From contig CAZTWC010000013.1 of the NCBI GenBank assembly GCA_964617105.1, positions 1 through 29,225 of the forward strand: DNA of 29,225 nucleotides, written 5' to 3'. Positions within the stretch are counted from its first letter, which is position 1. Each line of letters begins with the position of its first letter. Below, one piece after another: positions 455 to 28,429 of this stretch. The translations under genes and the position numbers were made by a program. The notes under the pieces were generated by a model. The model was not told where the DNA came from. It saw only the letters and a program-made list of their open reading frames with translations, and did no database searches. Source of the stretch: an uncultured Myxococcia bacterium. GTDB taxonomy: Bacteria; CAZTWC01.

Positions 455-1918
455 GTGATGTTTCGTAAACGGGCAGCCAGGAAAATCCTGTTGATAGGCG
501 ACTTACTGCTGATCTTTTTGGCTTTCTTACTGGCCTATTACCTGAGAAAATATTCCTTTGACTTTAGTGACAAACCCTTTTTGTCGGTTTGGCGCTACTT
601 GTGGGCTTTTGGGGTTGCCCTGATAACCTGGCTGGGAGGTGCCTTTTTCCTGAGGCTCTATCTGCGCCATCCAGCCTACAATACACTCCCGCAACTGGTA
701 AAAATCATTTTTATAGCCTCAGGCACCGGGGTAATTATCACCTTTGTGGCCTTTTTCTTCCGAGAATTACATATGAGCAGGCTGTTCATCCTCTTTTTTG
801 CCTGCCATATCGCTATCTTCACTTGCATTTTCCACATGGCCTATTTTTTGTTGATAATCTACCACCGGTACAAAGGATACAACATCCGCTCCGTATTGAT
901 TGCCGGCCACGGACAGCAGGCGGTAAACATGGCAGACCACCTTACCGCCATAGATTATGGCATCAAGGTGGCGGGTATTATCTCTATGGTAAAAAAATCG
1001 GATAAAACTGCCATCGAAACAGACGAACTTCTTTCTGAAGACAAAATTTACCATGGTAAAGATGGCAACCAGTATCCCTTTCTAGGGCATATTTTCGACT
1101 TGGCCTCAATACTTGAAAACCATGTTATAGATGAAGTGATATTTATTGTAGATAGCCGTCAGATGAAAATAGTGGAGCAGGGTTTCAGTCTTTGCGAAGA
1201 ATTGGGCGTTAGCGCCCGGTTGATGCTTGACTTTTTCCCACGCCGTATTGCCAGAGCCGAAGTGGACAACCTGGAGGGAGTCCCCTTGCTCTCTTTTGTT
1301 ACCACCCCCACCAATCAGATGGCATTGGCGATAAAACGCTCCTTTGATGTGCTATTTTCCCTGGTAGTATTGATTTGTGGAGCACCTTTTTTCCTGCTCA
1401 TCGCTGCATTAATCAAAGCCACCTCTAACGGCCCAATATTTTATCGCCAGGTACGCTCCGGGCAGAATGGTCGCCAATTTATCCTATACAAGTTCAGAAC
1501 CATGGACCAGGATGCCGAGCAGCACCAGGATGAAGTGCGCTGTCTTAACCAGATGTCGGGCCCGGTTTTCAAGAGTGCTTCAGATCCCCGACTCACCAAG
1601 ATTGGACGTTTGCTGCGTAGTTTCAGTCTGGATGAGTTGCCCCAGTTTTATAATGTATTAGCGGGGGATATGAGCATTGTCGGCCCCAGGCCGCCTTTAC
1701 CTTCGGAAGTGCAGCTCTACAAACGGTGGCAAAGACGCCGTTTGAGTGTGCGCCCGGGCATCACCTGCATTTGGCAGGTTTCAGGTCGTAATCAGGTAGA
1801 TTTTAACCGGTGGATGGAGATGGACCTTTTTTATATCGACAACTGGTCCCTGTGGATGGATACCAAAATATTTTTGCGAACTATTCCGGCCGTGCTATCC
1901 CGCCGCGGCGCCTATTAG
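455..1918 (+). CDS. Polyprenyl-phosphate sugar phosphotransferase (bacterial sugar transferase family, WbaP/EpsB-like). It has N-terminal TM helices, a CoA-binding-like central region and a C-terminal catalytic domain.
   Basis: The C-terminal region SFDVLFSLVVLICGAPFFLLIAALIKATSNGPIFYRQVRSGQNGRQFILYKFRTM...LDELPQFYNVLAGDMSIVGPRP is the classic Bac_transf signature. Several hydrophobic helices lie in the first ~130 aa. The start is GTG 455 or ATG 458. Confidence 0.8.
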   Translation: MMFRKRAARKILLIGDLLLIFLAFLLAYYLRKYSFDFSDKPFLSVWRYLWAFGVALITWLGGAFFLRLYLRHPAYNTLPQLVKIIFIASGTGVIITFVAFFFRELHMSRLFILFFACHIAIFTCIFHMAYFLLIIYHRYKGYNIRSVLIAGHGQQAVNMADHLTAIDYGIKVAGIISMVKKSDKTAIETDELLSEDKIYHGKDGNQYPFLGHIFDLASILENHVIDEVIFIVDSRQMKIVEQGFSLCEELGVSARLMLDFFPRRIARAEVDNLEGVPLLSFVTTPTNQMALAIKRSFDVLFSLVVLICGAPFFLLIAALIKATSNGPIFYRQVRSGQNGRQFILYKFRTMDQDAEQHQDEVRCLNQMSGPVFKSASDPRLTKIGRLLRSFSLDELPQFYNVLAGDMSIVGPRPPLPSEVQLYKRWQRRRLSVRPGITCIWQVSGRNQVDFNRWMEMDLFYIDNWSLWMDTKIFLRTIPAVLSRRGAY

Positions 1919-1921
1919 TCA

Positions 1922-3727
1922 CTACCCACCCAACCTGAACACTCCGGTTTTAATTGTCGCCTCGATTTTTTCGCCTTTGGTGGTGGAGGCTTCGCCAAAA
2001 ACGATCTCTCCTAGCCCAAGATGACCTAAAAGTTGCGGAGTGCCGGGAGCCACCCATCCTAAAAAGAGAAACATCCCCTCTGCTTTTCCGGACATAAAGG
2101 GAACTTTATTCCCTTTTTTAACTAAATTTTTAGGCAGGGTAACTAAGATTAGAAAAATTTTGTAATTTTCACCAACTACGCCCGGCACAATAATAGTGGC
2201 CTTATCCTTATCATCTGGCGGCTCAGCCGGATGGGCGGAGGCACCCACCATAAATGCCTTATAATCCTTGTTAATGTAAGAAACGTTGAAAGTGCCCTGA
2301 CCTGACGTCATAGGATCTTTGGGTTGCTTATCGGCCCAGGTTGTCGAAAAAGTCACGCTGGCCTCACCGGCCATCCCTATACAGGGAATTTTTCTCAGGG
2401 GAAATTCCCACCTGGGCGGACTGTCGCCATCCATCTCTTTATGAATAACACTCTTGCGGCTGGTGATAAACTTGTTTACTTTTTTCAGGGACTCTTTAAA
2501 AATATTGGCCACCTTTGGAACCAGATGTGGCGTAAGGAGTTCTTCCATACGGGCACTCTCGGCTATAAGGGCTTTATCATCCCAAATTTCATCCACCAGC
2601 GACAGCAGTTGTTTTACATATTTTGAACGAGTTTCAGGCAGATTATAGAGCCGCCTGCTAAGTATACTGTGGGCTAAAACAGATTTAGGCGGCTTAGTTT
2701 CCATCAGCGGTTGCATAAATTGGATAAAATTATTCATGGTGCCATCTACGCCCCAGGGGATAAAGTAAAATTTGTTGGAAACCGGGTGGCGGTAAACATA
2801 AAAATTGTTGTTATTGCCGTTGTAGCTATCCCAATGGCCGGTAAGCACTTCCATGGCCCAGTATTTGATAAAAGCATCAATGTCCAAAATAGGCTCCAAC
2901 TTTTTGAGCAATTCCTCATCCGGAACCTGCAGCGCTTCCACCATTTTATCGATATCTTTCCAGTCATTTTCTTGTTCATTGGTCTTTTTCTCAAAATGGG
3001 CAATCCACTGAGGCCGGAAATCGGCAATTGTTCCTTCGTATAAGTTGCCTGAATCATTCTGATAATTCCGCTTTAAAAAGGGTTTTTTTATTGGTTCAAC
3101 ATTGGAATAAATACCCAAATCCTGGCCGTTTACATAAACATGAGCAAAATTGCAGCGGGAGGAGGGGAGGCCAGCTTCGGCAAATAATTGATAAGTAAAA
3201 CACTGCTTAATTAGACTGGGGTCCTGTTTGTTATTGTTCAGGGTAAGCCTTTTTGCTCCTTTGAACAACCGGGTTTGGTCATACTCCAGAAATTTGACTT
3301 TTATTGACGGTTTGCTGCTGCTTTGTGATCCCAGCAAACCTTTTTTACGCACTCCAACCCTGGTGAATTTTTCATTGTCAATGGTAATATCGGCAGGAAA
3401 ATAGGTGTACACCGATTTTTCCAAAGGTTTGGGGCAGCCTTCAGCAAATATTTTTTCGGTGTTTTGCCTCTGGACCCGCATTTGGTCCCAGTCCTCCGGC
3501 TTCATCTCTATGCGGATATCCAGAATGTGCTCTGGTTTGAATATGGCGTCAGTTGGATCCGGTTTTTTATTCTCGGTTGAATCGGAACTATTGCTCTCTA
3601 ATTGGTCAGAGTTTTTATGATCAGTAGGGCCGGATTTATCACCGCATGACAATGGTAATAATGATAGGACTAGAACCAGGGCAGTTACCAACCAATAGTT
3701 TAGAAAACTGATTTTTTTATACAACAT
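1922..3727 (-). CDS. Secreted CotH-family (atypical protein kinase) protein. It has an N-terminal signal or lipoprotein-like peptide, a low-complexity S/D/N/K linker and a C-terminal ~130-aa extension.
   Basis: The N-terminus MLYKKISFLNYWLVTALVLVLSLLPLSCGDKSG is signal-peptide-like. The core contains ...YWAMEVLTGHWDSYNGNNNNFYVYRHPVSNKFYFIPWGVDGTM..., matching my memory of the CotH Pfam block (hWDg...NNYYLY...gKf.FIPWDxD). The RBS is AGGA, 10 nt upstream. Confidence 0.6.
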   Translation of the reverse strand: MLYKKISFLNYWLVTALVLVLSLLPLSCGDKSGPTDHKNSDQLESNSSDSTENKKPDPTDAIFKPEHILDIRIEMKPEDWDQMRVQRQNTEKIFAEGCPKPLEKSVYTYFPADITIDNEKFTRVGVRKKGLLGSQSSSKPSIKVKFLEYDQTRLFKGAKRLTLNNNKQDPSLIKQCFTYQLFAEAGLPSSRCNFAHVYVNGQDLGIYSNVEPIKKPFLKRNYQNDSGNLYEGTIADFRPQWIAHFEKKTNEQENDWKDIDKMVEALQVPDEELLKKLEPILDIDAFIKYWAMEVLTGHWDSYNGNNNNFYVYRHPVSNKFYFIPWGVDGTMNNFIQFMQPLMETKPPKSVLAHSILSRRLYNLPETRSKYVKQLLSLVDEIWDDKALIAESARMEELLTPHLVPKVANIFKESLKKVNKFITSRKSVIHKEMDGDSPPRWEFPLRKIPCIGMAGEASVTFSTTWADKQPKDPMTSGQGTFNVSYINKDYKAFMVGASAHPAEPPDDKDKATIIVPGVVGENYKIFLILVTLPKNLVKKGNKVPFMSGKAEGMFLFLGWVAPGTPQLLGHLGLGEIVFGEASTTKGEKIEATIKTGVFRLGG

Positions 3728-3770
3728 ATTAACACGATCCTGTCTTAAAATTCATTTCGTAGTAGACCGA

Positions 3771-3845
3771 CTCCCCTTGGTACGGAGAGAAGTCCAGTTT
3801 GTCTGGACAGAGGAAGGGGAGAGGGGGTAAAGGGGTTGGGACGGA
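3771..3845. other. Compound stem-loop followed by a G-rich (plus strand) / C-rich (minus strand) tract. It lies between the spoVR stop and the cotH-like start.
   Basis: A perfect 6-bp hairpin gtccag-tttgt-ctggac sits at 3792-3808. It is nested in an outer 8-bp pairing ctcccctt (3771-3778) / aaggggag (3814-3821). It is followed by gaggaaggggagagggggtaaaggggttggg (to ~3845). On the minus-strand transcript this is a C-rich, G-poor tract. Confidence 0.3.
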
Positions 3846-3847
3846 CA

Positions 3848-5353
3848 CTAACTGACTTTGTTTTGTTTTACCTCTTTGCCGTCAAAAGTGATGATGCTCT
3901 TGTCGTCACCAAGTTGGGTGAGGATATTAACCGGTCTGGACCAAATCGTGTAAATGTTGCGCAAAGTGTCGCAGGCATAGTCTGTTTTCAGATCCACCCC
4001 TTCGTGCTGATGGACCAAGAGCAACTCTCCTCGATTTTCATAGTTGGCGTTTTCAACGTAGATAATGGGCTGACCAAAATTGGTCAAACTGTGGAGTAAC
4101 TTATTTTTGATTATTTGAAATTTTCTGCTCTCGATCACCCAGTTTTTGCTCTTTTCGTGGTATCCATAGGTAAAGAGTTTATATTCGCGGCAAAACTCTT
4201 CGGTTAAAAATTCATCTATGAAAGTAACATCGTTGTAATATTTACGTACTTCGAATATTTTTTCCCGTCCTTTGTTAAGGTGGGTATTCCAGTTGTTGCG
4301 CACCGCCATATTTTCGCATTCCCGGTATTCCTTACCAAAACGTCCCTTGTTCCAACGGTCTTCGATGTGGCGAAACAACTCTATCCCCAGTTTGTATGGG
4401 TTGATTCGACCCGGACTGGTGCCCAGGGTGCCAGAGTGGTGGTCGGCATAATCGATCACTTCCGAGTCGTCCAGCGCTTTGGTGGTCATTATCTTGGAGT
4501 GCCAAAAGGAAGCCCAGCCTTCGTTCATTATTTTGGTCTGCCCTTGAGGCGCAAAATAGTAACTCTCTTCCCGGATAATGGAGAGGATGTCGCTTTGCCA
4601 CTTTTTCATAGGAGCATTTTCCTGTAAAAAGAGAAGGACATCTTTTTCTGGTTCCTCAGGAAATTTGCGCACCATCTCCTTGCGTAGTTTTTCCTGTTTG
4701 AGCACCTCTTTTTGTTTATCCAAAAAATTTTTAGGATTAACGTAGTTGGACATATACTCCTTGTTCACCTTGAATTTTTTTACATCGATCTTTTCATCGT
4801 TATCATCTTCCTCAACTTCAGCCCGGTGACGTTTTATAAAAGGGGAATAGTAATCGATTAAATTTTCCAGGCTAAGGCAAGTATCGATAAAAGATTCAAC
4901 TTTTTCCACCCCGTATTTGTCCATGTATTTTCTTACCCGGGTGGCGTGGTTGGCCATTTCGTCCACCATTTTCCGATTGGTGTGTGCAAAAAAGTAATTG
5001 TTTTTAAAAAAATCGCAGTGACCGTAAACATGGGCGATGACTATTTTTTGGTCAACCAGAGCGTTACTTTGCAAGAGATAGGCATAACAGGGATCGTTAT
5101 TGATCACCATCTCGTAGATTTTGGATAACCCGTAAGTATAAGATTTGGAGAGTTGGTCATACTCCATGCCAAAACGCCAGTGCGGATAACGGGTGGGAAA
5201 TCCTCCATAGGCAGCCACCATATTGATCTCATCGTATTTACAGACCTCGAAAATGGTTTCAAAAAAATCGAGGCCGTAATCTTTGGCGTATCCTTTTATG
5301 TTTTCCTGGATATCTGCCAGTTTAGGAGGAAGATTGCGATTAAAAAATGTCAT
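3848..5353 (-). CDS. spoVR: SpoVR/YcgB family protein
   Basis: The 501-aa product has an N-terminus ...YGLDFFETIFEVCKYDEINMVAAYGGFPTRYPHWRFGMEYDQLSKSYTYGLSKIYEMVINNDPCYAYLL... characteristic of SpoVR. The RBS is AGGA, 8 nt upstream. It lies 37 bp downstream of the yeaH-like gene on the same strand. Confidence 0.8.
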   Translation of the reverse strand: MTFFNRNLPPKLADIQENIKGYAKDYGLDFFETIFEVCKYDEINMVAAYGGFPTRYPHWRFGMEYDQLSKSYTYGLSKIYEMVINNDPCYAYLLQSNALVDQKIVIAHVYGHCDFFKNNYFFAHTNRKMVDEMANHATRVRKYMDKYGVEKVESFIDTCLSLENLIDYYSPFIKRHRAEVEEDDNDEKIDVKKFKVNKEYMSNYVNPKNFLDKQKEVLKQEKLRKEMVRKFPEEPEKDVLLFLQENAPMKKWQSDILSIIREESYYFAPQGQTKIMNEGWASFWHSKIMTTKALDDSEVIDYADHHSGTLGTSPGRINPYKLGIELFRHIEDRWNKGRFGKEYRECENMAVRNNWNTHLNKGREKIFEVRKYYNDVTFIDEFLTEEFCREYKLFTYGYHEKSKNWVIESRKFQIIKNKLLHSLTNFGQPIIYVENANYENRGELLLVHQHEGVDLKTDYACDTLRNIYTIWSRPVNILTQLGDDKSIITFDGKEVKQNKVS

Positions 5354-5390
5354 ATCGTTTATCCTGCCTGATGTTCTACTGTACTGTGCA

Positions 5391-6500
5391 CTACTTACCT
5401 TTGCCCAAAAACTCTTTTATTGAATCGAATATCCCATCTTTACCTTTAATTTCCGAGGTGACAAGATTTTCATTGTCCGAAAGATGCTGACCCAACTCTT
5501 TGATAAACTGGCCACTGCCGTATTGGCTTTCCACCTGGCCATAACAGAACATGTTTACCTGAGCCAACATTTTTTCTTTGAGTAATTTGATACAAACACT
5601 GGAATCATCGGTTGACCAATTGTCGCCATCGGAAAAGTGAAAGGGGTAGATATTCCACTCAGAGGGATTGTAATCTTCGTCAATAATTTTATCACATAAT
5701 TTATAGGCACTGCTGATCATGGTTCCGCCGCTCTCCCGGGTGTGGAAAAAAGTTTCTCGATCCACCTCCCTGGCCACGGCGTCATGGATAATATAGCGGG
5801 ACTCGATCCCTTCGTAGTTGGCGGACAACCAGGTTTCTATCCAAAAAGATTCTATCCGCACAATTTCCTTTTGCTCTTCACCCATAGAGCCAGAAACATC
5901 CATCATATAAATAATAACCGCGCTGGAAGTGGGTATCCTGGTGATCCGGATTGCCCGGTAACGCTTGTCTTCCCGGTGAGGAATCACCATCGGCCGCTTG
6001 GGGTTATAGGTACCGCTGGCAATTTGGCGCTGCAAGGCTTGGCGGTAAGTTCGTTTGAAATGGCGCAGGGATTCGGGACCGGCTGTATATACACCGGTAT
6101 ATTTCAACTTTTCGGCGATGATATTCTTTTTCCCCTTGGGTTCGATGCGGGGCAGTTCCAACTCTTCACCCATAATTTCAGCCAACTCCTCCAGAGTGAC
6201 ATCCACTTCCAAAACATGTTCGCCCGGCTGATCGCCCGCCTCCTTACCATCGCCCGGTTGCACCTGTCCCGGCTGCAGGACCTGTCCCTCCTCACCGTCT
6301 CCCTGCCCGACTCCACCAGTATTTTTATGGCCAAAACGAAATTTGGGGATCTCAATCTGTGGCAGGGGAATACTGACTATATCTTTCCCCTTTTTGCCCA
6401 GCAGTTCCCCTTTGGTAATATACTTTTTAAGATTTTTTTTGATCCTGCCCTTAATGATTTCTTTGAAGCGGCTGTGATCTTGCTTAATTTTTTGTACCAT
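5391..6500 (-). CDS. YeaH/YhbH family protein (DUF444) with a C-terminal vWA-like domain
   Basis: The 369-aa product has ...[34 protein letters not shown]... and a MIDAS-like [15 protein letters not shown] typical of UPF0229/YeaH. It sits between prkA and spoVR, as in the conserved prkA-yhbH / yeaG-yeaH arrangement. Confidence 0.8.
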
Positions 6501-6510
6501 GGTTTTTTAT

Positions 6511-6656
6511 TGCATCCGCATTATTACCTATTAATTTAAGAATGTGGAGGCGCTCGGATAACTAGGCGCCGTTTCTAAAATCACAGCAGGCGTATGATAA
6601 TACGTCGAGGATAATTTTAGAAACGGCAACAACGTTAGCCGAGATGCATCCGCATT
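6511..6656. repeat. Structured intercistronic element between prkA and the yeaH-like gene. A 12-bp direct repeat TGCATCCGCATT (6511-6522 and 6645-6656) flanks a perfect 13-bp inverted repeat CCGTTTCTAAAAT / ATTTTAGAAACGG (6569-6581 / 6614-6626).
   Basis: All repeats were read directly from the sequence. One direct-repeat copy lies 4 nt after the prkA stop and the other 11 nt before the yeaH-like ATG. The inverted repeat would form a 13-bp stem with a 32-nt loop in the operon mRNA. No SD sequence precedes the yeaH-like start. Confidence 0.35.
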
Positions 6657-6659
6657 CTT

Positions 6660-8729
6660 CTACTTGTCTTCTTTTATGTCGCCTCGGGCAAATATACTCG
6701 CCACAAAATTCAGCACATCAGTAGCGCAAATTTCGCAATAGCCGTATCCATCGATCAACCGCTGTTTGACTACATCAATTTTCTCCTGGGTATCTTTGTC
6801 CACCACTGCACTCACCAAACTTTTCAACTTGATGGTGTCTTTCTGGTCTTCAAACAATTTCAACTCCAGCGCTTTTTGCAGCCTCTCGTTGGTGCGATAA
6901 TCAAATCCCTTACCATCCACAGCCAGGGCACCGATGTAGTTCATTATTTCGCGTCTGAAATCGTCTTTGCGTGATTCCGGAATCTCAATTTTTTCTTCAA
7001 TAGAACGCATCAGTCTCTCATCAGGCTCCTCGTATTGGCCGGTGTATTTGTTTTTAATCTTCTCTTTTTGAGTGTAGGCTTTTACATTGTCGATATAGTT
7101 GCTGCACAACTTGGTGATAGCGTTTTCATCGGCGGAAATTGCTTTTTGTACTTCATTTTTAATGATATCTTCATATTCCTGTTTCACCACATTTAGCAAA
7201 TCGCTATAATGCTTACGCATATCCTTGCTGGTGACCAAAGAGTGGTGTTTCATACCGGCTTCCAATTCATTTAAAACCAGGAAGGGGTTAATACAGCCTT
7301 CCGCTTTGTCGCTAACCAGGGAATTGGACATTTTATCCTGCACGTAACGAGGGCTTATCCCCTCCATTCCCTCGCGCTCCGTTTCTTTACGCAACTCTTT
7401 AATATTATCTTCTGTAAAGCCGCTTAAGGTTTTTCCATCGTAAAGTTTTAACTTCTGCAACAGGGTAAGGTTGTGTTTTTTGGGCTCTTCCAGCCTGGTG
7501 AGCACCGCCCACATGGCAGCCATCTCCACGGTATGGGGAGCAATGTGTTTTCCCTTGATTCTTTTGGTGTTAAAATCTCTGGAATAGATTTTGATCTCTT
7601 CTGAGAGTTTGGTGATATAGGGAATATCTACTTTGATGGTCCGATCACGTAAGGCTTCCATGAACTCATTGTTCTGAAGTTTTTTAAATTCCGGTTCATT
7701 GGTATGGCCGATGATCACTTCGTCAATATCGGTCTGAGCAAATTTTTTCGGTTTAATCTTATGCTCCTGGGTGGCCCCCAAAAGGTCGTATAGAAAAGCT
7801 ACATCCAATTTGAGGATTTCTATAAACTCAATAATACCCCGGTTGGCTATATTAAATTCACCATCGAAATTAAAGGCGCGGGGATCGGAGTCAGAACCAT
7901 ACTCGGCGATTTTGCGATAATTGATATCACCGGTCAATTCGGTGGAGTCCTGATTTTTCTCATCTTTAGGCTGAAAGGTGCCTATACCGCAGCGGTCTTT
8001 TTCGCTCAAGATCAACCGGCGCACGGTAATATGCTTGATCACTTTGCTCCAGTCGCCGTTGTACCGCTTGCTTAACTCGCTGAAAACATAGCGGCAGGCC
8101 GGGCACAACTCGCCGGTATTGGGAATAAGATACTCCTTGTTGCCCAATCCCAACTCGTTAAAAACCCTATCACGCCATTCCGCTGGAATCAGATGGATTG
8201 GGTCCTCGTGCATGGGGCAATTCATGATTTCTTCAACATCTTTACCATCCAAATTTTTACGCATAAATTTCCAGGTAAAAGTGTACATGGTCCCTTCCGG
8301 TATTTTACTGTAATCTTCCCGCCCTTTTTTCATCAATCTGGCGATAGTGCTCTTAGAACTTCCCACCGGGCCGTGGAGTAAAATTACCCTCTTTTCTGGT
8401 CCATATTGGTTGGCGGCTGATTTAAATACATTTACCAGTTTCATTAGAGAAATATCCAGGCCATAGATTGCATCGGCGCCACCAAATTTTTCATCTTTAA
8501 AAAAATTGTAACTAACAATCTTCTTTTTATTGTCCATATACTCGGTTTTACCATAGGAGGTGATCATATCGTATAGATGCTGAAATGCTGTCCTGGTAAC
8601 CCGGGGATTTTCTTTGACAATCTGCAGGTAATCCTCAAAATTTCCTACCCAGTTCAGCTCCTGGTACTGCCTGGTGTCCTGTAATTTGGCAATAACATCT
8701 AACATTGTTTTTTTTGCAGACCTAGCCAT
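6660..8729 (-). CDS. prkA: PrkA family serine protein kinase (AAA+ ATPase N-terminal domain plus C-terminal kinase domain)
   Basis: [56 protein letters not shown]... and the Walker [11 protein letters not shown] are typical of PrkA/YeaG. I moved the start from the track's 8807 to the ATG at 8729 (complement of 8727-8729). That ATG is preceded by AAAGGAGG 8 nt upstream. The longer ORF adds 26 non-conserved residues and has no RBS. Confidence 0.85.
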
Positions 8730-8823
8730 AAGTATTTTGCCTCCTTTAAATATAAAGATCTGGATATAATAATTTTCTTGACTTTTCCCGGAACACTCAC
8801 CCCACAAATAATTTCAAACTAAC

Positions 8824-9045
8824 TCACGTTACCGCTTCAACCCGCTCAACTTCCGGTATTTTCTCTTTTAGTCTTTGCTCTACTCCCATTTTCAGGGTCA
8901 TCGCAGCTCCCGGACAACCGGCACAGGCACCCTGAAGTTTTACAAAAACAACGTTATCCTTAACATCAACCAATTCGATATTTCCGCCATCAGCGATTAA
9001 AAAAGGTCTAATCTCGTCTAATACTTTTTCTACTTTTTCTTTCAT
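8824..9045 (-). CDS. NifU/Nfu-like Fe-S cluster assembly/carrier domain protein
   Basis: The 73-aa product has ...IRPFLIADGGNIELVDV...LQGACAGCPGAAMTLKMGVEQRLKEKIPEV..., the NifU C-terminal domain with a CxxC. The RBS is AGGAGG. Confidence 0.75.
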   Translation of the reverse strand: MKEKVEKVLDEIRPFLIADGGNIELVDVKDNVVFVKLQGACAGCPGAAMTLKMGVEQRLKEKIPEVERVEAVT

Positions 9046-9068: not shown

Positions 9069-9097
9069 ATAATATACACGATTGAGCAATTTATCAA
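9069..9097 (-). promoter_or_regulatory. Candidate sigma70 promoter for the nifU-like gene: TTGATA-17-TATTAT on the minus strand
   Basis: On the minus strand, TTGATA (complement of 9092-9097), a 17-nt spacer and TATTAT (complement of 9069-9074). The predicted TSS is ~9062, leaving a short leader with AGGAGG before ATG 9045. Confidence 0.35.
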
Positions 9098-9191: not shown

Positions 9192-10280
9192 ATGAATAAA
9201 AACCATCTTCCATTGGAACAGTACGAACCATTTTTCACCTCTTTTCAATCTGGGGTACTGGTCTGCCAGTTTAACGGCAAAATAGTGTATTTAAACCCGG
9301 CCGGGGAAGAGATACTTGAATACTCCAAAACAGAACTCCAATCCAGGAACCTTAACGATATTCTCAGCCCAGAGGAAAAAAAGAGGGTGGCCCGGATTAT
9401 GTCCAGAATAATTAACCGGGAAAAACTGAACTCCTTTGAATCCCTGGTAGTCAGCAAATCTGGCTTGAAGATGAGATTGCATTTTTCTATCAATACCCTG
9501 TTTTTAAACCAGCAGCATATTATCCTCTTGTTTGACGATATCACTCAGGCCTGGGTGCTAAAAGTAGAACGGGAAAAGACTAAATATTTTTTGGAAAATT
9601 TAGTCAACTCCTCGGTGGATGCTATTATTTCCGCCGACATGAATGGCTACATCACCTTTTTTAATCGGAGTGCTACCCGAATATATGGTTTTGCTGCAGA
9701 AGAGGTGGTGGATAAAATGCATGTTGCCCAACTATACTTCCCAGGGGAGGCGAAAAAAGTGATGCAAATGCTGCGCAGCAAAGAATTCGGCGGCGTGGGC
9801 AAACTCAATTCCATAGAACAATATGCCTTAAGTCGGGCAGGGGAAAAAATTCCAATTAGAATGACGGCGGCGATTATTTATAATCAAGAGCAAGAGATAG
9901 GAACCGTGGGGATTTTCAGCGATATGCGGGAAAAACGGAAAATGGAGGAAAAACTACAAACTGCCCAAAATAAATTGCTCATTCATGAAAGGCAGATTGC
10001 CATGGCCGAACTGGCGGGCGCCACTGCCCATGAATTAAACCAGCCGCTCACCGTGTTATTGGGCTCCTTTGAACTTTTAGAAATGGACTTAGCCCAGGAT
10101 GACCCACTTAGAAAAGAGTTAAAAGTGATCGAGCAGGAGTTGGAACGGATATCCAATGTAGTAAAAAAAATCGGCCAATTAACCCACTATGAAACTAAAT
10201 CTTACGTTGGTCAGACCACTATTGTGGACCTGGAAAAGTCATCTACTTCGGAGGACCAAGATATTATCGATAATCCTTAA
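9192..10280 (+). CDS. PAS-PAS-HisKA protein: a sensor histidine-kinase fragment with an H-box but no HATPase_c catalytic domain
   Basis: Two PAS-like segments are present (…VYLNPAGEEILEYSKTEL… and …SVDAIISADMNGYITFFNRSATRIYGF…). A coiled-coil/HisKA region follows: ERQIAMAELAGATAHELNQPLTVLLGSFELLEM. The ORF ends ~90 aa later with no N/G1/G2 boxes. Aspartate kinase starts 25 bp downstream, so there is no room for a lost ATPase domain. Confidence 0.7.
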   Translation: MNKNHLPLEQYEPFFTSFQSGVLVCQFNGKIVYLNPAGEEILEYSKTELQSRNLNDILSPEEKKRVARIMSRIINREKLNSFESLVVSKSGLKMRLHFSINTLFLNQQHIILLFDDITQAWVLKVEREKTKYFLENLVNSSVDAIISADMNGYITFFNRSATRIYGFAAEEVVDKMHVAQLYFPGEAKKVMQMLRSKEFGGVGKLNSIEQYALSRAGEKIPIRMTAAIIYNQEQEIGTVGIFSDMREKRKMEEKLQTAQNKLLIHERQIAMAELAGATAHELNQPLTVLLGSFELLEMDLAQDDPLRKELKVIEQELERISNVVKKIGQLTHYETKSYVGQTTIVDLEKSSTSEDQDIIDNP

Positions 10281-12219: not shown

Positions 12220-13035
12220 TTAAAATTTACCATAATCACTAATCAACTTTTCGGCCCGTTGAACATCATCAGGAGAATCCACACCACTCATACCCGGCCA
12301 GTTTCCATAATCCACTTTAACCATTCGAATATCAATACCATTATCTATAAACCGCAATTGCTCCAAACCCTCCAGTTTTTCATAAAACCCCTGGGGAAGA
12401 TGGGCAATTTTGTCTAAAATGTCATAGCGATAACCGTAGAGTCCAATATGGCGATAAATCGGCGACAAACCGGTTTCTGAGTTCCTCTCCCGTATACTTT
12501 TCTCCTGGCGGATAGCGGGAATAATATTCTTAGAAAACCAGATGGCTTTATTTTCCTGGTTCACAATAACGGTGGTGCCGGAAAAGGGGGTGTGCTTTTT
12601 GAACTGCCGCAAAATATCCAACTCTTTCCAGGACAATTGGACACAGGGTGTGACTACCTCCAGCGAGTTATCTTGGAGATAACAATCAATGATCGTCTCC
12701 ACAAATCCGGGTGGACAAAGTGGGTTATCGCCCTGCAGATTCACCACAAAATCGGGCCTCTCCTGAATGGCCTGGGCAGCCTCGCGCACCCTTTCTGTGC
12801 CGGTGCGGCAATCGGTTGAGGTGATAAGCACCTCCATATTGTGCTGGCGACAAAATTGAGCGATCCGTTGATCATCGGTGGCCACCACCACCCTTACATT
12901 TTCAAACTTTTTGGCCGCTCTGATGGCAATGTCCCACACCAGTGCCACCATTTCGCGCCCAGCAATTTTTACCAAAGGCTTGCCGGGAAAACGGGTGGAG
13001 CCGTAACGGGCGGGAATAACAATAAGGGTTTTCAT
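12220..13035 (-). CDS. kdsB: 3-deoxy-manno-octulosonate cytidylyltransferase (CMP-KDO synthetase)
   Basis: MKTLIVIPARYGSTRFPGKPLVKIAGREMV... is the classic KdsB N-terminus. The product is 271 aa. Confidence 0.85.
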   Translation of the reverse strand: MKTLIVIPARYGSTRFPGKPLVKIAGREMVALVWDIAIRAAKKFENVRVVVATDDQRIAQFCRQHNMEVLITSTDCRTGTERVREAAQAIQERPDFVVNLQGDNPLCPPGFVETIIDCYLQDNSLEVVTPCVQLSWKELDILRQFKKHTPFSGTTVIVNQENKAIWFSKNIIPAIRQEKSIRERNSETGLSPIYRHIGLYGYRYDILDKIAHLPQGFYEKLEGLEQLRFIDNGIDIRMVKVDYGNWPGMSGVDSPDDVQRAEKLISDYGKF

Positions 13036-13358: not shown

Positions 13359-14759
13359 ATGGCTTTTCGAATCCTCATTGCTGATGATGAAGAAGATTCA
13401 AGGGAAACTTTTTCCCAGTTTTTTACCAAGAGTGGTTACGATGTAGAAACAGCGGACAACGGTTTTGATGTGATCTTGCGAGTGAAACAACAAGACTACC
13501 ACCTGCTGCTTCTGGATAATATTATGCCTGGCAGCAATGGGGTGGAGGTGTTAAAATATTGTCAAAAACACAAACCAGACTTGCCAATTGTTCTATACAG
13601 CGCCCATGCCAAAATGGAAGATGTGGTCTCCATAATGGAGAAGGGTGCCCAAAAATTTTTCCCTAAAGAAACGGCCCTGGCCACCATGGAAAAACATATT
13701 GCCGAAATATTGACCAATAAATACCAACAAATGAAACCGGAGTCGGAAAACGATTCCCAAACCCCTGCCACCGGCGACTGCCACTATCTTGATATGATTG
13801 GCGATGACCCCAAGATGAAAAAGATTTTCGGTATTATCGAACGAGTTGCCAAGACCGAAAGCACGATATTGGTTACCGGGGCAAGCGGTACCGGCAAAGA
13901 GTTGGTAGCCCGGGCAATTCATACCAGAAGCAAACGAGGTAAAGGACCCTTGGTACCGGTAAATTGCGCTGCCATCCCCGATACGCTTTTAGAAAGCGAA
14001 CTGTTCGGCTATGAAAAAGGGGCTTTTTCCGGTGCAGTAAAATCCAAACCTGGACGTTTTAAAATGGCGGACAAAGGTACCATCTTTCTGGACGAGATAG
14101 GAGATATGCCGCCTTACCTACAGGTAAAATTGCTGCGGGTGCTGCAGGACAAATCATATATTCCCCTGGGAGGCATCCAGGAGATGAGCGCCAACTTCAG
14201 AGTGGTTTCCGCCACCAATAAAGATTTGGAAAAGGAGATCGCCGAGGGAAACTTCAGGGAAGATCTATATTTCCGTCTCAACGTAATTCCAATTAGTATT
14301 CCACCTCTGCGGGAACGACGGGGAGACATCCCTTTGCTGATAAACAGTTTTTTAAACAAAATAAATAATAACGAAGACTTATCAGTGGAAGGGGTAGAAA
14401 AAGAGGTTATGGAGAAATTGTTCCGTTACGATTGGCCGGGCAATGTTAGAGAACTGGAAAACATGGTGGAAAGAATGATGATTTTTCGCGGGGAGGGAAA
14501 TATTCTCCTGGAGGATGTTCCGCAAAAGATCTTGGGCAACCAATCTGGCAAAGATGAGACCCCATCAATGGAAGTGGGTGAAGATGGCATAGATTTCAAC
14601 CAGGTAATAAGTGAGATGGAAAAAGACCTGATCTTACAGGCCTTGGAACAAACTGGATGGAATAAGAACAAAGCAGCCAGCCTGCTCAATTTGAATCGAA
14701 CGACTCTGGTGGAAAAAATAAAAAAGAAAAAATTAAAGCCCTCTTCTGAGGATAATTGA
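13359..14759 (+). CDS. Sigma54-dependent response regulator, NtrC family (REC + AAA+ sigma54-interaction domain + C-terminal Fis-type HTH)
   Basis: The REC domain has the acceptor Asp in HLLLLDNIMPG. Walker A is VTGASGTGKE. The GAFTGA-type loop reads GAFSGA. ...FRLNVIPISIPPLRERRGDIPLL... is typical of the family. The C-terminal HTH is KNKAASLLNLNRTTLVEKIKK. Confidence 0.85.
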   Translation: MAFRILIADDEEDSRETFSQFFTKSGYDVETADNGFDVILRVKQQDYHLLLLDNIMPGSNGVEVLKYCQKHKPDLPIVLYSAHAKMEDVVSIMEKGAQKFFPKETALATMEKHIAEILTNKYQQMKPESENDSQTPATGDCHYLDMIGDDPKMKKIFGIIERVAKTESTILVTGASGTGKELVARAIHTRSKRGKGPLVPVNCAAIPDTLLESELFGYEKGAFSGAVKSKPGRFKMADKGTIFLDEIGDMPPYLQVKLLRVLQDKSYIPLGGIQEMSANFRVVSATNKDLEKEIAEGNFREDLYFRLNVIPISIPPLRERRGDIPLLINSFLNKINNNEDLSVEGVEKEVMEKLFRYDWPGNVRELENMVERMMIFRGEGNILLEDVPQKILGNQSGKDETPSMEVGEDGIDFNQVISEMEKDLILQALEQTGWNKNKAASLLNLNRTTLVEKIKKKKLKPSSEDN

Positions 14760-14909
14760 GATCTCATTTAGAAATAGCTTGCCAAAGATCATAAATTAAT
14801 TTAAAAAATTAAATACCTAAAATCAGCAATTGACTCACGGATTGAGGTTGTTGTAAATTTTAGGTAATGTCTATTAAATTAAAAATTACTCATACATTTT
14901 GGAGGAGTT

Positions 14910-15200
14910 ATGGCTGATGCATTAGGTATGATTGAAACTAGAGGTTTTGTCGGTATGGTTGAGGCATCTGACGCAATGGTAAAAGCAGCTCGAGTGGAGT
15001 TGGTAGGCTATGAAAAAATTGGCGGCGGTTTTGTAACCGCATTGGTCAGAGGTGATGTAGCGGCGGTCAAAGCGGCCACCGAGGCTGGTTCCAGAGCGGC
15101 TGAACGAGTTGGTGAACTGGTTAGCGTCCACGTTATTCCTCGTCCCCATGCTAATATAGATCTCGTGTTACCCCTGGGCAGAAAAAACCAGGTATCTTAA
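14910..15200 (+). CDS. BMC-H shell protein (hexamer-forming, PduA/EutM-like, Pfam00936 domain)
   Basis: [60 protein letters not shown]... is a canonical BMC-domain sequence. The RBS is GGAGG. Confidence 0.9.
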
Positions 15201-15253
15201 TGATATCCTGAATTATTTCTGGCGCAAAGGGCAAGGGGAGGCAAAAGAGAAGG

Positions 15254-15559
15254 ATGTTAATCGGAAAAGTTATCGGTACTGTGGTGTCAACCCGCAAGGA
15301 AGAAACTTTGAAGGGGTTGAAGTTTTTGCTGCTTAGACCAACGGATGAAGCGGGAAAACTAAAAGCAAAAGATGATCCGGTGGTAGCCGCAGATGCAGTA
15401 GGCGCCGGAGTTGGAGAATTGGTGCTTTATGCCACTGGCAGTGCATCCAGGCAGACTCATCTCACCGATGAACGGCCGGTTGATGCAGTAATTATGGCCA
15501 TTGTAGATATGATTGATAAAGACGGCAACATTTCCTATAATAAGGCGGAGTCTGAGTAG
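15254..15559 (+). CDS. BMC-P vertex protein (pentamer, EutN/PduN/CcmL family)
   Basis: MLIGKVIGTVVSTRKEETLKGLKFLLLRP...VAADAVGAGVGELVLYATGSASRQ is typical of EutN/CcmL. The product is 101 aa. Confidence 0.85.
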   Translation: MLIGKVIGTVVSTRKEETLKGLKFLLLRPTDEAGKLKAKDDPVVAADAVGAGVGELVLYATGSASRQTHLTDERPVDAVIMAIVDMIDKDGNISYNKAESE

Positions 15560-15702
15560 TTTTAATTGTTTGTGGTTCTGCCTTAATTTTCCTTACCAAA
15601 CTTAGTCTTCTTCTCTATATTTCTGAAAATTCCCTTATTTTTTATCTGAAACTTTAACTTGTCTATTATATCTTTAACCAATTTATTACATGGAAACACA
15701 AA

Positions 15703-16005
15703 ATGGATGCAAAATTTTTTGAAGAGTTGAGCCTGGAACAGTGGAGCCAATGCCGCAATCAGTTGATTACCTTATCGCAGGACCAAAAAGCCCTGGCTGA
15801 TTTTATTGCCGAGATGAGCCAAAAAATCCCTTTGGCCGGTGAAATATGGAAAGCCATCCGGTTAAATACGGCTCAAAACCAAAAGCAGGAAGGCGAAGAG
15901 AAAGAAAATAATCCCAACCAGGACAAATTGATCGAAATGAGCGGAGATTTAAACTTTTTTTGTTTCCTTTACTCGCTGGGAAAACAGGCGAAAATTTGGG
16001 AATAA
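15703..16005 (+). CDS. Hypothetical 100-aa protein inside the BMC operon. It is predicted helical with an acidic/polar middle and a hydrophobic C-terminus, and shows no recognisable family.
   Basis: The ORF is in operon orientation. It follows a 143-bp CT-rich spacer and ends 20 bp before the aldehyde dehydrogenase ATG. Its RBS is weak (GGAAA). I could not match it to PduL, PduV, EutJ or any other known BMC accessory. Confidence 0.4.
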   Translation: MDAKFFEELSLEQWSQCRNQLITLSQDQKALADFIAEMSQKIPLAGEIWKAIRLNTAQNQKQEGEEKENNPNQDKLIEMSGDLNFFCFLYSLGKQAKIWE

Positions 16006-16025
16006 AATTATGGGAGTATAAAAAA

Positions 16026-17495
16026 ATGCACCTGGACGAAAAAAGGATAGACGCCATTGTGGAAAAAGTGGTGAGTAAATTGGCCGGTGAACAGATGGCT
16101 AAACCATTAGGGATGAAACCAGTTTCCAGCCATGCAAGCGCTAACGCCTCTCCGTCTCTAGTAACCGGAAAATATTTCTCCGGTCCTGGTCAGGTGGGGG
16201 TATTTCCCGATATGGATTCTGCCGGTGAAGCAGCCGGCAGAGCCCAGGAACAATTGGTAAAACTTCCTTTGCAGATGCGAATCAGAGTAATTGAGGCTAT
16301 GCGGGAGGTATCCAGGCAACACAACCGTGAACTAGCCGAGATGACGGTAAAAGAGACCGGGATAGGTAGAGTGGCGGACAAAATAAATAAAAATCTGCTG
16401 GCCATAAATAAAACTCCTGGGGTGGAAGACTTGAAACCCATCGCCTGGTCTGGTGATGACGGCTTGACCCTGGTGGAGCGGGCGCCTTACGGGGTGATTG
16501 GCTCTATAACTCCCTGCACCAATGCGACTGAAACTATTATATGCAATGCCATTGGCATGATAGCCGGTGGAAATGCTGTCATATTTAATGTTCACCCTGC
16601 AGCCAAGAATATTTCCAATTACTATATCTCTCTGTTAAACAAAGCCATTGTGGCGGTGGGCGGACCGCCAAACCTGCTATGCTGCATTAAAGAGCCCACT
16701 ATCCAAAGCGCCCAGGCCCTGATGAGCCATCCTGCCATCAGGTTATTGGTGGTCACCGGCGGTCCAGCAGTGGTAAAAGTGGCCATGCAATCAGAAAAAA
16801 AGGTGATCGCCGCCGGACCGGGTAATCCTCCAGCGGTAGTGGATGAAACTGCTCACATTGAAAGGGCGGCCCAAAATATTATCAAAGGCGCCTCCCTGGA
16901 TAACAATATTGTCTGCGTGGTAGAAAAAGAGTTCATTGCGGTCAGCGATATTGCCGATATGCTAAAACAGTATATGCTGCGGTACGGTGCATACGAAGTT
17001 ACCGGGCGACAACTGGCCCGACTGGAAAAAGTGGTGTTAAAAGGAGATGGGGTTAACAAAGATTGGGTTGGGAAAAATGCCAACCGGATTTTAGATCAAA
17101 TTGGGATATCTGCTTCCGATGACCTACGCTTGATATTCTGCGAAACCTCAGAAGACCATCCCTTTGTGCAGCACGAATTGCTGATGCCGGTGGTGCCTCT
17201 TATTCGAGTATCTCATGTGGACGAAGGGATTGCCATGGCCAAAAGGGTGGAGCACAATTTCAGGCATACCGCCTGTATCCACTCCACCAATATCGAAAAA
17301 CTACACAAAATGGCGGTGGTTATGGACACGTCTATTTTTGTTAAGAATGCACCCTCTTACGCCGGACTGGCTCTGGGCGGCGAGGGATACACCTCTTTTA
17401 CTATCGCCAGTCCCACCGGCGAAGGGCTTACCTCTGCCAAAGACTTTACCAGAGTGAGACGCTGCGTGTTAAAGGACTACTTCCGGATCGTTTAA
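16026..17495 (+). CDS. CoA-acylating aldehyde dehydrogenase (PduP/EutE-like) with an N-terminal BMC encapsulation peptide and linker
   Basis: The start was moved to ATG 16026, which has a GGGAG RBS ~10 nt upstream. The track ORF from 15960 adds 22 residues that overlap the upstream gene. The N-terminus MHLDEKRIDAIVEKVVSKLAGEQ is an amphipathic helix. It is followed by a ~45-aa G/S/P-rich linker. The core contains ITPCTNATETIICNAIGMIAGGNAVIFNVHP and the catalytic-Cys block LDNNIVCVVEKE, as in EutE/AdhE-type acylating ALDH. Confidence 0.85.
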   Translation: MHLDEKRIDAIVEKVVSKLAGEQMAKPLGMKPVSSHASANASPSLVTGKYFSGPGQVGVFPDMDSAGEAAGRAQEQLVKLPLQMRIRVIEAMREVSRQHNRELAEMTVKETGIGRVADKINKNLLAINKTPGVEDLKPIAWSGDDGLTLVERAPYGVIGSITPCTNATETIICNAIGMIAGGNAVIFNVHPAAKNISNYYISLLNKAIVAVGGPPNLLCCIKEPTIQSAQALMSHPAIRLLVVTGGPAVVKVAMQSEKKVIAAGPGNPPAVVDETAHIERAAQNIIKGASLDNNIVCVVEKEFIAVSDIADMLKQYMLRYGAYEVTGRQLARLEKVVLKGDGVNKDWVGKNANRILDQIGISASDDLRLIFCETSEDHPFVQHELLMPVVPLIRVSHVDEGIAMAKRVEHNFRHTACIHSTNIEKLHKMAVVMDTSIFVKNAPSYAGLALGGEGYTSFTIASPTGEGLTSAKDFTRVRRCVLKDYFRIV

Positions 17496-17500
17496 TTATC

Positions 17501-18838
17501 ATGCAAAAAAATCGCCTGATTAAGTTGGTTGAGGAGGCTGGCGTTGTTGGAGCCGGCGGGGCAGGTTTTCCCTCTCATCTAAAGATATCATCTAAAGTTG
17601 ATACGGTAATCGCTAATGGGGCCGAGTGTGAACCGCTCCTATATACTGACCAGACCGCCATGATTGAACAAACGCGCGAATTAGTGGCTGGATTGGAGAT
17701 GGTGGTTAATATCACTGGCGCCCAAAAAGGGATCATTGCGCTTAAAAGCGTCTATCAAGACTGCATCAAAAAATTAAAGGCCGCGATAAAGGGAAAAAAT
17801 GGGATTGAACTATTTTTGTTAGAAGATTTTTATCCTTGCGGAGATGAGCATGTTCTCACCTTTGAAGTTACCGGCAGGCTGGTTCCTCAGCGGGGAATCC
17901 CTCTGGAAACCGGGGTGCTGGTGCACAACGTCACTACCCTGATCAATATTTATCATGCCAGCCATGGTCAAAAGGTGGTGGATCGAGCCCTTACCGTTAC
18001 CGGAGAAGTAAAAAATCGCGGCGTGATTAAAGTGCCTGTAGGGACATCAATAAAAGAGGTGCTGGCTCAATGCGGCGGCCCTACAGTTCATCCCTTTAGA
18101 GTGATTTGCGGCGGACCGATGATGGGAAATGAGGAGGAAGATCTGCTTCAATCCGTAGATAAACTCACCGCCGGCCTGATAGTTCTGCCGGCTAACCATC
18201 TTTATTTTACGTTGAGAGGTGCGGAGAGTAAAAAGGCCCAGGGTTACCTTAGCCGGGCCACCGCCTGTATTCAGTGCAGCGACTGCACTTCTCTTTGCCC
18301 CCGTTATTTACTCGGGCATCAAATTCAACCTCATATCTTGATGCGCAATATCACCTTCTCTGGCCCAGATCCCCAAAAGGGCTCTCAGGCTTTGCTATGC
18401 TGCCAGTGTGGTCTTTGCTCTCTCTACGCCTGCTCCCAGGGCCATTCCCCCCGCACCCTGTGTATCCAACTAAAAGAGATGGGCGCCAGTCAAAATATCG
18501 AGCCGCCCGTAAAGATGGTGCCGCCCGCAGTGCGAGAGGGACGTAACTACAAAAAGGTCCCCAAACTAAACCTGGTCAGGGCTCTAAAATTAGAGAAATA
18601 TTACCATCCGTTAAAAACCATTATTCCCAATGAAAATTGGACCAGGGTTCGGATAAAAATGCTGCAGCATTTTGGCCAACCAGCCAAATCAATAGTAACT
18701 AAAGGAGAGATGGTAAAGAAAGGGCAAACCATTGCCCAAATGGCTTCAAAACAATTAGGTGCCAACATCCATGCCTCTATTTCCGGCCAGGTAGTAAAAG
18801 CGAACCGGAATGAAGTGGTGATAAAAAAGGTTAAATGA
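17501..18838 (+). CDS. PduS-like RnfC/NuoF-family Fe-S flavoprotein (BMC-associated oxidoreductase)
   Basis: The N-terminus ...VVGAGGAGFPSHLKI...VIANGAECEPLLYTDQ matches the RnfC/PduS nucleotide-binding region. There are two 4Fe-4S motifs: CIQCSDCTSLCP and CCQCGLCSLYAC. The start is 6 bp after the ALDH stop. Confidence 0.8.
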   Translation: MQKNRLIKLVEEAGVVGAGGAGFPSHLKISSKVDTVIANGAECEPLLYTDQTAMIEQTRELVAGLEMVVNITGAQKGIIALKSVYQDCIKKLKAAIKGKNGIELFLLEDFYPCGDEHVLTFEVTGRLVPQRGIPLETGVLVHNVTTLINIYHASHGQKVVDRALTVTGEVKNRGVIKVPVGTSIKEVLAQCGGPTVHPFRVICGGPMMGNEEEDLLQSVDKLTAGLIVLPANHLYFTLRGAESKKAQGYLSRATACIQCSDCTSLCPRYLLGHQIQPHILMRNITFSGPDPQKGSQALLCCQCGLCSLYACSQGHSPRTLCIQLKEMGASQNIEPPVKMVPPAVREGRNYKKVPKLNLVRALKLEKYYHPLKTIIPNENWTRVRIKMLQHFGQPAKSIVTKGEMVKKGQTIAQMASKQLGANIHASISGQVVKANRNEVVIKKVK

Positions 18839-18902
18839 CAGTGTTCACAGGAAAATTAACTGCCATATGAAATTTGGACAAGCAAAGAACTGAGGAAAAA
18901 AG

Positions 18903-19457
18903 ATGTCTTATAAAGATCCCGCCATCGGCATGATAGAAACTTTGAGTATAGCAAAAGGGATGGTGGCCTGTGACACTATGGCTAAAAAAGCCCCTGTCAG
19001 CGTACTCCAGGCCCACAGCATCTGCCCGGGAAAATTTTTAATTATCATCAATGGCGAAGTTTCTGAGGTAGAAGAGTCTATGATGGTGGGAGAAAATAGT
19101 GCGGACCACTACCTGGTAGACAAACTCTTTTTACCCCATGTCGACCCCCAGGTAGGGCCGGCTATTACCCGCACCAACCATATAGAAACTATAAAATCGG
19201 TAGGAATTATAGAAACCTTTACCGCTGCTTCAATAATTTATGCGGCTGATGCTGCCGCCAAGTGCACATCCATAAAACTGATAGATATCAGAATAGCCAA
19301 TGGACTGGGGGGGAAATCCTACCTGACCTTAACTGGTGAGTTGTATGAGGTTGAGGCCTCCATTAAGGCTGGAGTTGAAAAGATCGACACCGGACTTTTG
19401 GTGCAAACCGAGATTATTCCCGCACCCCACCCAGATTTTGTGGCACATCTGTTCTAG
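18903..19457 (+). CDS. BMC-T shell protein (tandem BMC domains, PduT-like) with the conserved pore cysteine
   Basis: The 184-aa product has two BMC domains: AIGMIETLSIAKGMVACDTMAKK...SICPGKFLIIINGE and VGIIETFTAASIIYAADAAAKCT.... It closely parallels Salmonella PduT, including the Cys in the sICPGKF loop that ligates a 4Fe-4S cluster at the trimer centre in PduT. The RBS is GAGGA. Confidence 0.85.
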   Translation: MSYKDPAIGMIETLSIAKGMVACDTMAKKAPVSVLQAHSICPGKFLIIINGEVSEVEESMMVGENSADHYLVDKLFLPHVDPQVGPAITRTNHIETIKSVGIIETFTAASIIYAADAAAKCTSIKLIDIRIANGLGGKSYLTLTGELYEVEASIKAGVEKIDTGLLVQTEIIPAPHPDFVAHLF

Positions 19458-28352: not shown

Positions 28353-28429
28353 GGTGGATGTAGCTCAGTTGGTAGAGCACCGGGTTGTGGCCCCGGTTGT
28401 CGTGGGTTCGAGCCCCATCATTCACCCCA
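28353..28429 (+). tRNA. tRNA-His (anticodon GTG) with a genomically encoded G-1 and 3' CCA
   Basis: The cloverleaf was folded by hand. The acceptor stem is GTGGATG/CATTCAC with a G4-U69 wobble. The D-arm is AGCTCAGTTGGTAGAGC. The anticodon stem-loop is CCGGG-TTGTGGC-CCCGG, with GTG at positions 34-36. The T-arm is GTGGG-TTCGAGC-CCCAT. The discriminator is C73, pairing with the extra 5' G at 28353. CCA is at 28427-28429. Confidence 0.85.

Follow-up and report, generated by a model that had tools for sequence, protein, structure and literature searches.

Lack of conserved synteny between a prkA-yeaH-spoVR operon and the adjacent cotH-like lipoprotein gene of an uncultured Myxococcia bacterium

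Introduction

The genes prkA (yeaG), yeaH and spoVR (ycgB) form a single-operon module in most Gram-negative bacteria (Price et al., bioRxiv 10.1101/072470), and the trio occurs throughout non-sporulating bacteria, where the three genes are cofit for nutritional phenotypes (bioRxiv 10.1101/072470). Here, we analyzed a copy of this trio in a 29,225-nucleotide stretch of DNA from an uncultured Myxococcia bacterium (contig CAZTWC010000013.1 of GenBank assembly GCA_964617105.1), hereafter called the window. Within it, the minus-strand genes located between positions 1922 and 9045 were studied, where the trio is followed by a co-directional gene encoding a CotH-like protein. The position of cotH directly after spoVR is probably a lineage-specific accident of gene order that reflects no conserved functional link, as searches for shared synteny in both directions failed to bring the two together in any other species.

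CotH of Bacillus is a cytoplasmic protein of the mother cell. Elsewhere, cotH is found contiguous with pel operons together with genes for a polyphosphate polymerase and a DUF4956 protein (Whitfield et al., 10.1101/768473), and non-spore clusters of cotH, VTC and DUF4956, with or without DUF4832, lie by Pel loci in Streptococci, Clostridia and Bifidobacteria (10.1101/768473).

The window resembles and departs from each of these systems. With E. coli yeaG-yeaH and ycgB and with the Gram-negative single-operon module (10.1101/072470) it shares the three Pfam families, their order and their strand, but its trio is preceded by nfu and followed by cotH, neither of which occupies that place in 80 related loci. 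With Bacillus CotH (PDB 5jd9/5jda), the CotH-like protein has in common the PF08757 family, the fold, and the Asp and Asn of the catalytic loop, whereas it additionally carries a lipoprotein signal, a tether, a C-terminal beta domain and four conserved cysteines, and no cotG- or cotB-like substrate genes lie near it. As in the Pel-linked clusters, cotH occurs in a bacterium that does not form endospores, it adjoins polysaccharide genes, and its orthologues can be found beside VTC and DUF4956 genes. In contrast to those clusters, the scanned open reading frames (ORFs) of the window include no match to VTC, DUF4956 or pel genes, and the polysaccharide neighbor is convergent rather than co-transcribed.

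Results and discussion

The trio and cotH are not neighbors in related genomes

Five genes share the minus strand in the order nfu, prkA, yeaH-type, spoVR and cotH-like, with gaps of 94, 159, 37 and 120 bp between them (Table 1). The sequence was re-read, and the four gene calls of the initial annotation (prkA through cotH), their shared strand and the 159- and 37-bp gaps were found to be correct. The four family assignments likewise hold, with all Pfam matches far above cutoff.

Related trio loci were collected using SpoVR as the probe, which yielded 80 loci on one-genome-per-species contigs at 57-65% identity from Myxococcota, Planctomycetota, Bdellovibrionota, Acidobacteriota, Nitrospinota and other groups; in 68 of the 80, the sequence continues past spoVR for 2 kb or more. 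No CotH was detected in these 80 loci by tblastn with the window protein. Two profile hidden Markov models, one built on the CotH subfamily and another that also took in Firmicute CotH sequences, also gave no match in 83 trio loci spanning 1.14 Mb (the 80 genome loci and the three closest metagenomic contexts), and the positive control for the CotH profile returned 91 matches. The reverse search covered 86 loci of CotH orthologues (765 kb). Six of these came from four genomic contexts around the nearest orthologues, and the other 80, at 34-46% identity, from metagenomes. Neither tblastn nor phmmer found PrkA, YeaH, SpoVR or Nfu in any of these loci, 50 of which extend at least 1.6 kb upstream of cotH.

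The trio had been described as extended by cotH, a proposal that was staked on conserved synteny. With cotH found in 0 of 83 trio loci and the trio in 0 of 86 CotH loci, synteny is conserved in neither direction, and CotH is therefore not supported as a member of the module. By the same token, the adjacency is no evidence that CotH kinases belong to a PrkA pathway. Apart from the window, the layout was repeated only in same-species contigs with identical proteins from several samples which, because they come from the same species, are not independent evidence. A first metagenome scan with the CotH protein gave no match, and no paper mentioning PrkA, SpoVR and CotH together was found in the literature collection searched.

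What lies directly after spoVR varies among the related loci, with an ORF of ∼170 aa in 18, a response regulator in 10, and a Peptidase_M23 gene in several Myxococcota-like loci. The ∼170-aa ORF is conserved, has no Pfam match and follows spoVR on the same strand (18/80 loci: L020, L023, L028, L029, L036, L039, L043, L047, L048, L052, L057, L060, L062, L064, L067, L070-L072; for example L067:9472-9978). It occurs in Planctomycetota, Nitrospinae, Calditrichia, KSB1 and Spirochaetia, and is a better candidate than cotH to be a genuine fourth member of the module. The Peptidase_M23 (Csd3-like) gene follows spoVR at L178:7581-8861 and L179:7969-9123 as well as in L001, L017, L051 and L068; L178, L179 and others with this gene are the Myxococcota-like loci closest to the window.

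The top SpoVR bit score belonged to a 725-aa protein (P0130, L176:305-2482) that was rejected as a close relative, being only 54% identical. With a ∼220-residue internal duplication and a contig of 3.1 kb, it is probably an assembly artefact.

The spoVR-cotH spacer contains an extreme C-rich tract

A structure had been proposed at 3771-3845, after which cotH might have its own promoter. The 123-nt spacer between spoVR and cotH folds at -26.6 kcal/mol as compared to -26.0 ± 3.2 kcal/mol for shuffled sequences (z = -0.19), so the proposed structure is no more stable than expected from composition. The spacer contains no hairpin-plus-T-run terminator, no match to a sigma-70-like promoter, no Rfam match and, as read by eye, no sigma-54 GG-N10-GC element. 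An RNA structure or terminator at 3771-3845 was rejected on these grounds. Because the spacer lacks an intrinsic terminator and a recognizable promoter, however, read-through transcription from spoVR into cotH is possible.

The spacer does have one unusual property. On the mRNA strand, the 40 nt from 3844 to 3805, which begin 4 nt past the spoVR stop codon, contain 24 C and only 2 G, making this the 40-nt stretch with the highest C-minus-G value when both strands of the 29 kb are scanned. It is this tract that had been read as a structure. Rho loading sites are characterized by unstructured RNA that is rich in C and poor in G. Given so extreme a tract, Rho-dependent termination after spoVR is a reasonable hypothesis, and it would fit the tract better than read-through does. 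In the relatives, the most C-rich tract after spoVR has a median percentile of 0.93, a value that is inflated by taking the maximum over overlapping windows and on which no claim is built.

These observations bear on the idea that cotH was recruited in this organism as a fourth, co-transcribed member of the prkA operon, with CotH as its surface output. Several points count in favor of recruitment or against an accident of gene order. The four genes are co-directional in this species, the 120-bp gap between spoVR and cotH is smaller than the 159-bp gap between prkA and yeaH, and no terminator hairpin or sigma-70-like promoter was detected in the spacer. The codon usage of cotH is native, and the identical arrangement does recur, in same-species contigs from several samples. 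All four families bear "sporulation" names in Bacillus, a possible hint of a shared theme. Lastly, the nearest SpoVR relatives among 5.8 billion proteins are 66% identical, and the synteny result covers relatives from beyond the organism's own family and order. On the other side stand the two-way synteny tests, the lack of independence of the recurring contigs, and the placement of the strongest C-rich, G-poor, rut-like tract of the window between spoVR and cotH. In addition, the products belong to different compartments, the cytoplasm and the envelope, with no known mechanism linking them. On balance, recruitment into the operon appears unlikely, and an accident of gene order is favored.

The trio is an ordinary non-sporulation operon

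PrkA matched AAA_PrkA (304.8 bits) and the PrkA C-terminal domain (296 bits), each with a Pfam cutoff of 25. Its translation shows the Walker A motif GPVGSSKST, and the protein is 64-85% identical to PrkA of the 80 related loci. The DUF444 protein matched PF04285 over its full length (298 bits). SpoVR matched PF04293 over its full length (479.7 bits, cutoff 27), and its SpoVR_C domain was marginal (27.4 bits, cutoff 27.6). PrkA fell under the cutoff of the E. coli YeaG equivalog NF011999 (231.5 vs 576) and SpoVR under that of the YcgB equivalog NF008737 (212 vs 679); judged by these scores, both are members of their families and not YeaG or YcgB equivalogs. PrkA, YeaH and SpoVR occur in this order on one strand in about 60 of the 80 related loci, and the window trio is an ordinary, well-documented operon that is already known.

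The trio had been regarded as the non-sporulation version of the module in a diderm. This reading is borne out because the DUF444 protein scores 629.8 bits with the non-spore equivalog NF003711 (cutoff 388) but only 298 with spore_yhbH TIGR02877 (cutoff 468), and kdsB is present in the window. The description of PrkA as an AAA+ Ser kinase fared less evenly. Membership in the AAA+ family stands, while the Ser kinase activity is contested by work on B. subtilis PrkA, which was shown to be a Lon-like protease that depends on ATP and in which no kinase activity could be detected (PMC9512850). The genes nfu, prkA, yeaH and spoVR would constitute the organism's copy of a widespread cytoplasmic starvation and stress module, whose three conserved proteins cooperate in most bacteria. 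The biochemistry of the module is unsettled; its AAA+ ATPase is described either as a Ser kinase or as a protease of the Lon-like type, and two partner proteins accompany it. Since nfu lies beside prkA in none of the 80 related loci, it too is a lineage-specific neighbor.

A gene for a 362-aa PAS-PAS-HisKA protein without a HATPase_c domain (9192-10280, plus strand) is divergent from nfu-prkA, and in locus L178 a comparable gene, encoding a 380-aa PAS/HisKA protein, is located ∼2.4 kb from prkA on its upstream side. The proximity may be a coincidence, or the gene may be a recurrent sensor partner.

The CotH-like protein belongs to a large subfamily of lipoproteins

The assignment of the cotH product to the CotH family, on which the initial annotation rested, was confirmed by a PF08757 match of 160.7 bits (cutoff 23.8) over residues 127-403 and profile positions 2-289 of 322, and by a sequence match to B. 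cereus CotH (5jd9, E = 4e-17). An AlphaFold2 model computed from 40 orthologues was confident (pLDDT 88.9, pTM 0.84). In a Foldseek search with this model, 5jd9 and 5jda were the top PDB folds (E = 5e-21, target TM 0.79), followed by CtkA, HipA and PI3K kinases.

The N-terminus reads MLYKK-ISFLNYWLVTALVLVLSLLPL-S-C28, in which a KK n-region precedes a hydrophobic stretch of 21 residues, and position 28 is a cysteine. This cysteine is aligned in 38 of the 40 orthologues, where the residue preceding it is mostly A, G or S; the lipobox departs from the PROSITE rule in having Pro at -3. The export signal that had been described is thus present, and the conservation of Cys28 refines it from a merely secreted protein to a lipoprotein. 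The low-complexity linker spans residues 29-60 and is predicted to be disordered, with residues 25-50 modeled in this way by AlphaFold2. The extra C-terminal domain is also real in the model, as a confident all-beta domain of ∼155 residues with strands at 450-599 that is conserved across the subfamily. It has no Pfam match and, by Foldseek, no significant match in the PDB. Assignments to an Ail, VioE, avidin or LolA-like fold were tried and rejected, the PDB matches being weak and non-significant. In the orthologue alignment Cys98, Cys192 and Cys449 are invariant and Cys176 is nearly so, a pattern that would fit disulfides in an exported protein. Taken together, these features suggest that signal peptidase II would cut at Cys28 and that a disordered tether of ∼30 residues would hold the CotH domain and the C-terminal beta domain outside the cytoplasm.

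The protein has ∼2,000 homologues, of which the best are ∼40% identical over 89-98% of the query and, where named, come from Sorangium and from metagenome-assembled genomes labeled "Deltaproteobacteria". It is a member of a large, uncharacterized lipoprotein subfamily found mostly in Myxococcota and "Deltaproteobacteria". The GC content of cotH is 0.435, and its codon usage has a cosine of 0.965 to the rest of the window. With native composition in both respects, a recent horizontal insertion of the gene is ruled out.

The subfamily carries a variant active-site motif

Residues D300 and N308 of the CotH-like protein are invariant in 40/40 sequences and align with the FDGFVHN stretch of B. cereus CotH, where their counterparts are D224 and N229, which correspond to B. 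subtilis D228. The D228Q variant of B. subtilis CotH is reported to be catalytically dead (Nguyen et al. 2016, as cited in PMC7821199), and the second essential Asp is D251, located 23 residues past D228 (PMC7821199). We placed D251 on the first Asp of a PWD motif by this 23-residue spacing rather than by a residue-level structural superposition. At the corresponding site, six Firmicute CotH sequences have PWD(Y/F/Q)(D/N), whereas the window protein and its 39 orthologues all have PWGxD, with G326 and an invariant D328 in the window protein. The full subfamily motif, HWD...NN...PWGxD, spans residues 299-329 (nt 2741-2833, minus strand), and its catalytic loop is lengthened by a 3-residue insertion.

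The PWGxD motif may mean either that the metal-binding Asp has moved or that the chemistry differs. As PWGxD stands in place of PWDxD/N, kinase activity of the subfamily is plausible but unproven. Were the protein active, it would presumably transfer phosphate to an envelope or surface substrate. Together, the invariant PWGxD motif and the conserved beta domain make one ask what role a kinase fold that depends on ATP could have beyond the cytoplasm. A particularly elaborate proposal is that the starvation module captured this CotH-fold lipoprotein, with its re-positioned metal-binding Asp, as a co-transcribed output. If true, cytoplasmic starvation sensing would be coupled to phosphorylation, or to a polyphosphate-linked modification, of the envelope or surface, although we regard this as quite improbable.

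Polysaccharide, VTC and DUF4956 genes near cotH or its orthologues

On its other side, cotH meets a convergent gene for a polyprenyl glycosylphosphotransferase. The stop codons of the two genes are 3 bp apart, and the convergent gene closes the string of co-directional genes. A divergent GT2 glycosyltransferase gene lies beyond it. Conceivably, cotH is functionally tied to these surface-polysaccharide genes, as it is in the Pel-linked clusters, where cotH is contiguous with pel operons (10.1101/768473). The tail-to-tail arrangement with an exopolysaccharide priming transferase and then a GT2 gene would suit such a tie, as would the genes that recur next to the orthologues. Among the 86 orthologue loci, the recurrent neighbors were VTC, a domain of the polyphosphate polymerase type (6/86), and DUF4956 (4/86), with no others recurring; these match the accessory genes of the Pel-linked clusters of non-sporulating Gram-positives (10.1101/768473). 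However, the convergent orientation means that cotH and the priming transferase do not share a transcript, no Bac_transf or GT2 cluster recurs beside cotH in the 86 loci, and neither VTC nor DUF4956 was matched among the scanned window ORFs. A functional tie to the polysaccharide genes is therefore distinctly unlikely for the window, and the neighborhood on this side is not conserved either.

Examples of the VTC and DUF4956 pairing are found in L087, L088 and L091 (VTC at ∼5700-6690, DUF4956 at 1910-2593) and at L165:2779-3510. The recurrence of this pairing hints at polyphosphate. Both it and the PWGxD variant are possibly worth a specialist's time, and neither is specific to the window.

Envelope and taxonomic context

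The host had been called a diderm on the basis of kdsB and an ArnT-like gene. The kdsB call stands, having passed two NCBIfam cutoffs, and provides context evidence consistent with a lipopolysaccharide-bearing outer membrane. The second gene does not encode ArnT; its product is a PMT_2 GT-C glycosyltransferase that scores 26 against the ArnT equivalog cutoff of 567. An outer membrane had in turn been taken to argue against endospores. The diderm assignment is retained here, but an outer membrane does not exclude every kind of spore.

Some Myxococcota sporulate, and the best matches of both the trio and CotH are in Myxococcota. One could therefore imagine a resting-cell or spore program in a diderm, in which PrkA, YhbH, SpoVR and CotH build a myxospore-like or cyst coat, particularly as members of each of the four families function in Bacillus sporulation (PMC7821199; PMC9512850). 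The evidence points the other way. The trio is ubiquitous in non-sporulators, the DUF444 protein fails the spore_yhbH model, and the window protein is an exported lipoprotein whereas Bacillus CotH is cytoplasmic. Furthermore, the pairing was present in no Myxococcota locus examined. A coat-building program is accordingly the most improbable of the explanations considered, and chance adjacency in one lineage is again preferred.

Gene layout and other features of the window

Coordinates of the features discussed above are given in Table 1. The prkA start was set at the ATG at 8729, which lies behind an AGGAGG sequence, and the TTG at 8807 chosen by the ORF lister was rejected. The promoter-like match upstream of nfu is the best of the region and may start an nfu-prkA-yeaH-spoVR transcript; 16 such matches were seen as compared to 13.7 expected by chance.

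Table 1. Positions of the trio, the CotH-like gene and surrounding features in the window
Feature	Position	Strand	Evidence
nfu, 73-aa NifU-like Fe-S scaffold domain protein	8824-9045	-	PF01106, 1e-30
prkA/yeaG, 689-aa AAA+ PrkA-family protein	6660-8729	-	PF08298, 1e-90; PF06798, 3.5e-88
yeaH-type DUF444 protein, 369 aa	5391-6500	-	PF04285, 1.3e-88; NF003711
spoVR/ycgB-family protein, 501 aa	3848-5353	-	PF04293, 8e-144
C-rich, G-poor tract, candidate Rho-utilization site	3805-3844	-	Composition scan of both strands, 29 kb
cotH-like gene, 601-aa predicted lipoprotein	1922-3727	-	PF08757, 8e-47; 5jd9 match; AlphaFold2 model
Predicted signal peptide and lipobox Cys28 of CotH-like protein	3644-3727	-	N-terminal sequence; orthologue alignment
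CotH kinase-fold domain, residues 127-403	2519-3349	-	PF08757
C-terminal all-beta domain of CotH-like protein, residues about 445-601	1925-2395	-	AlphaFold2 model
Polyprenyl glycosylphosphotransferase, primes exopolysaccharide synthesis	455-1918	+	PF02397; TIGR03025, 395 bits (cutoff 296)
Sigma-70-like promoter match upstream of nfu, TTGATA-17-TATTAT, 10/12	9069-9097	-	Consensus match only
kdsB, CMP-Kdo synthetase	12220-13035	-	NF003952, 258.8 bits (cutoff 193); NF003950, 239.2 bits (cutoff 234)

The sole Rfam match of the window is a tRNA gene at 28354-28426 on the plus strand. A bacterial microcompartment locus is also present on the plus strand at 13359-19457, behind a gene for a sigma-54 response regulator (13359-14759). 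The locus encodes two shell proteins, one with a BMC domain (14910-15200) and one of the tandem-BMC type (18903-19457), and between them lie genes for an acylating aldehyde dehydrogenase (15960-17495; NF011927, 673.7 bits) and an RnfC/Nuo51-like Fe-S flavoprotein (17501-18838).

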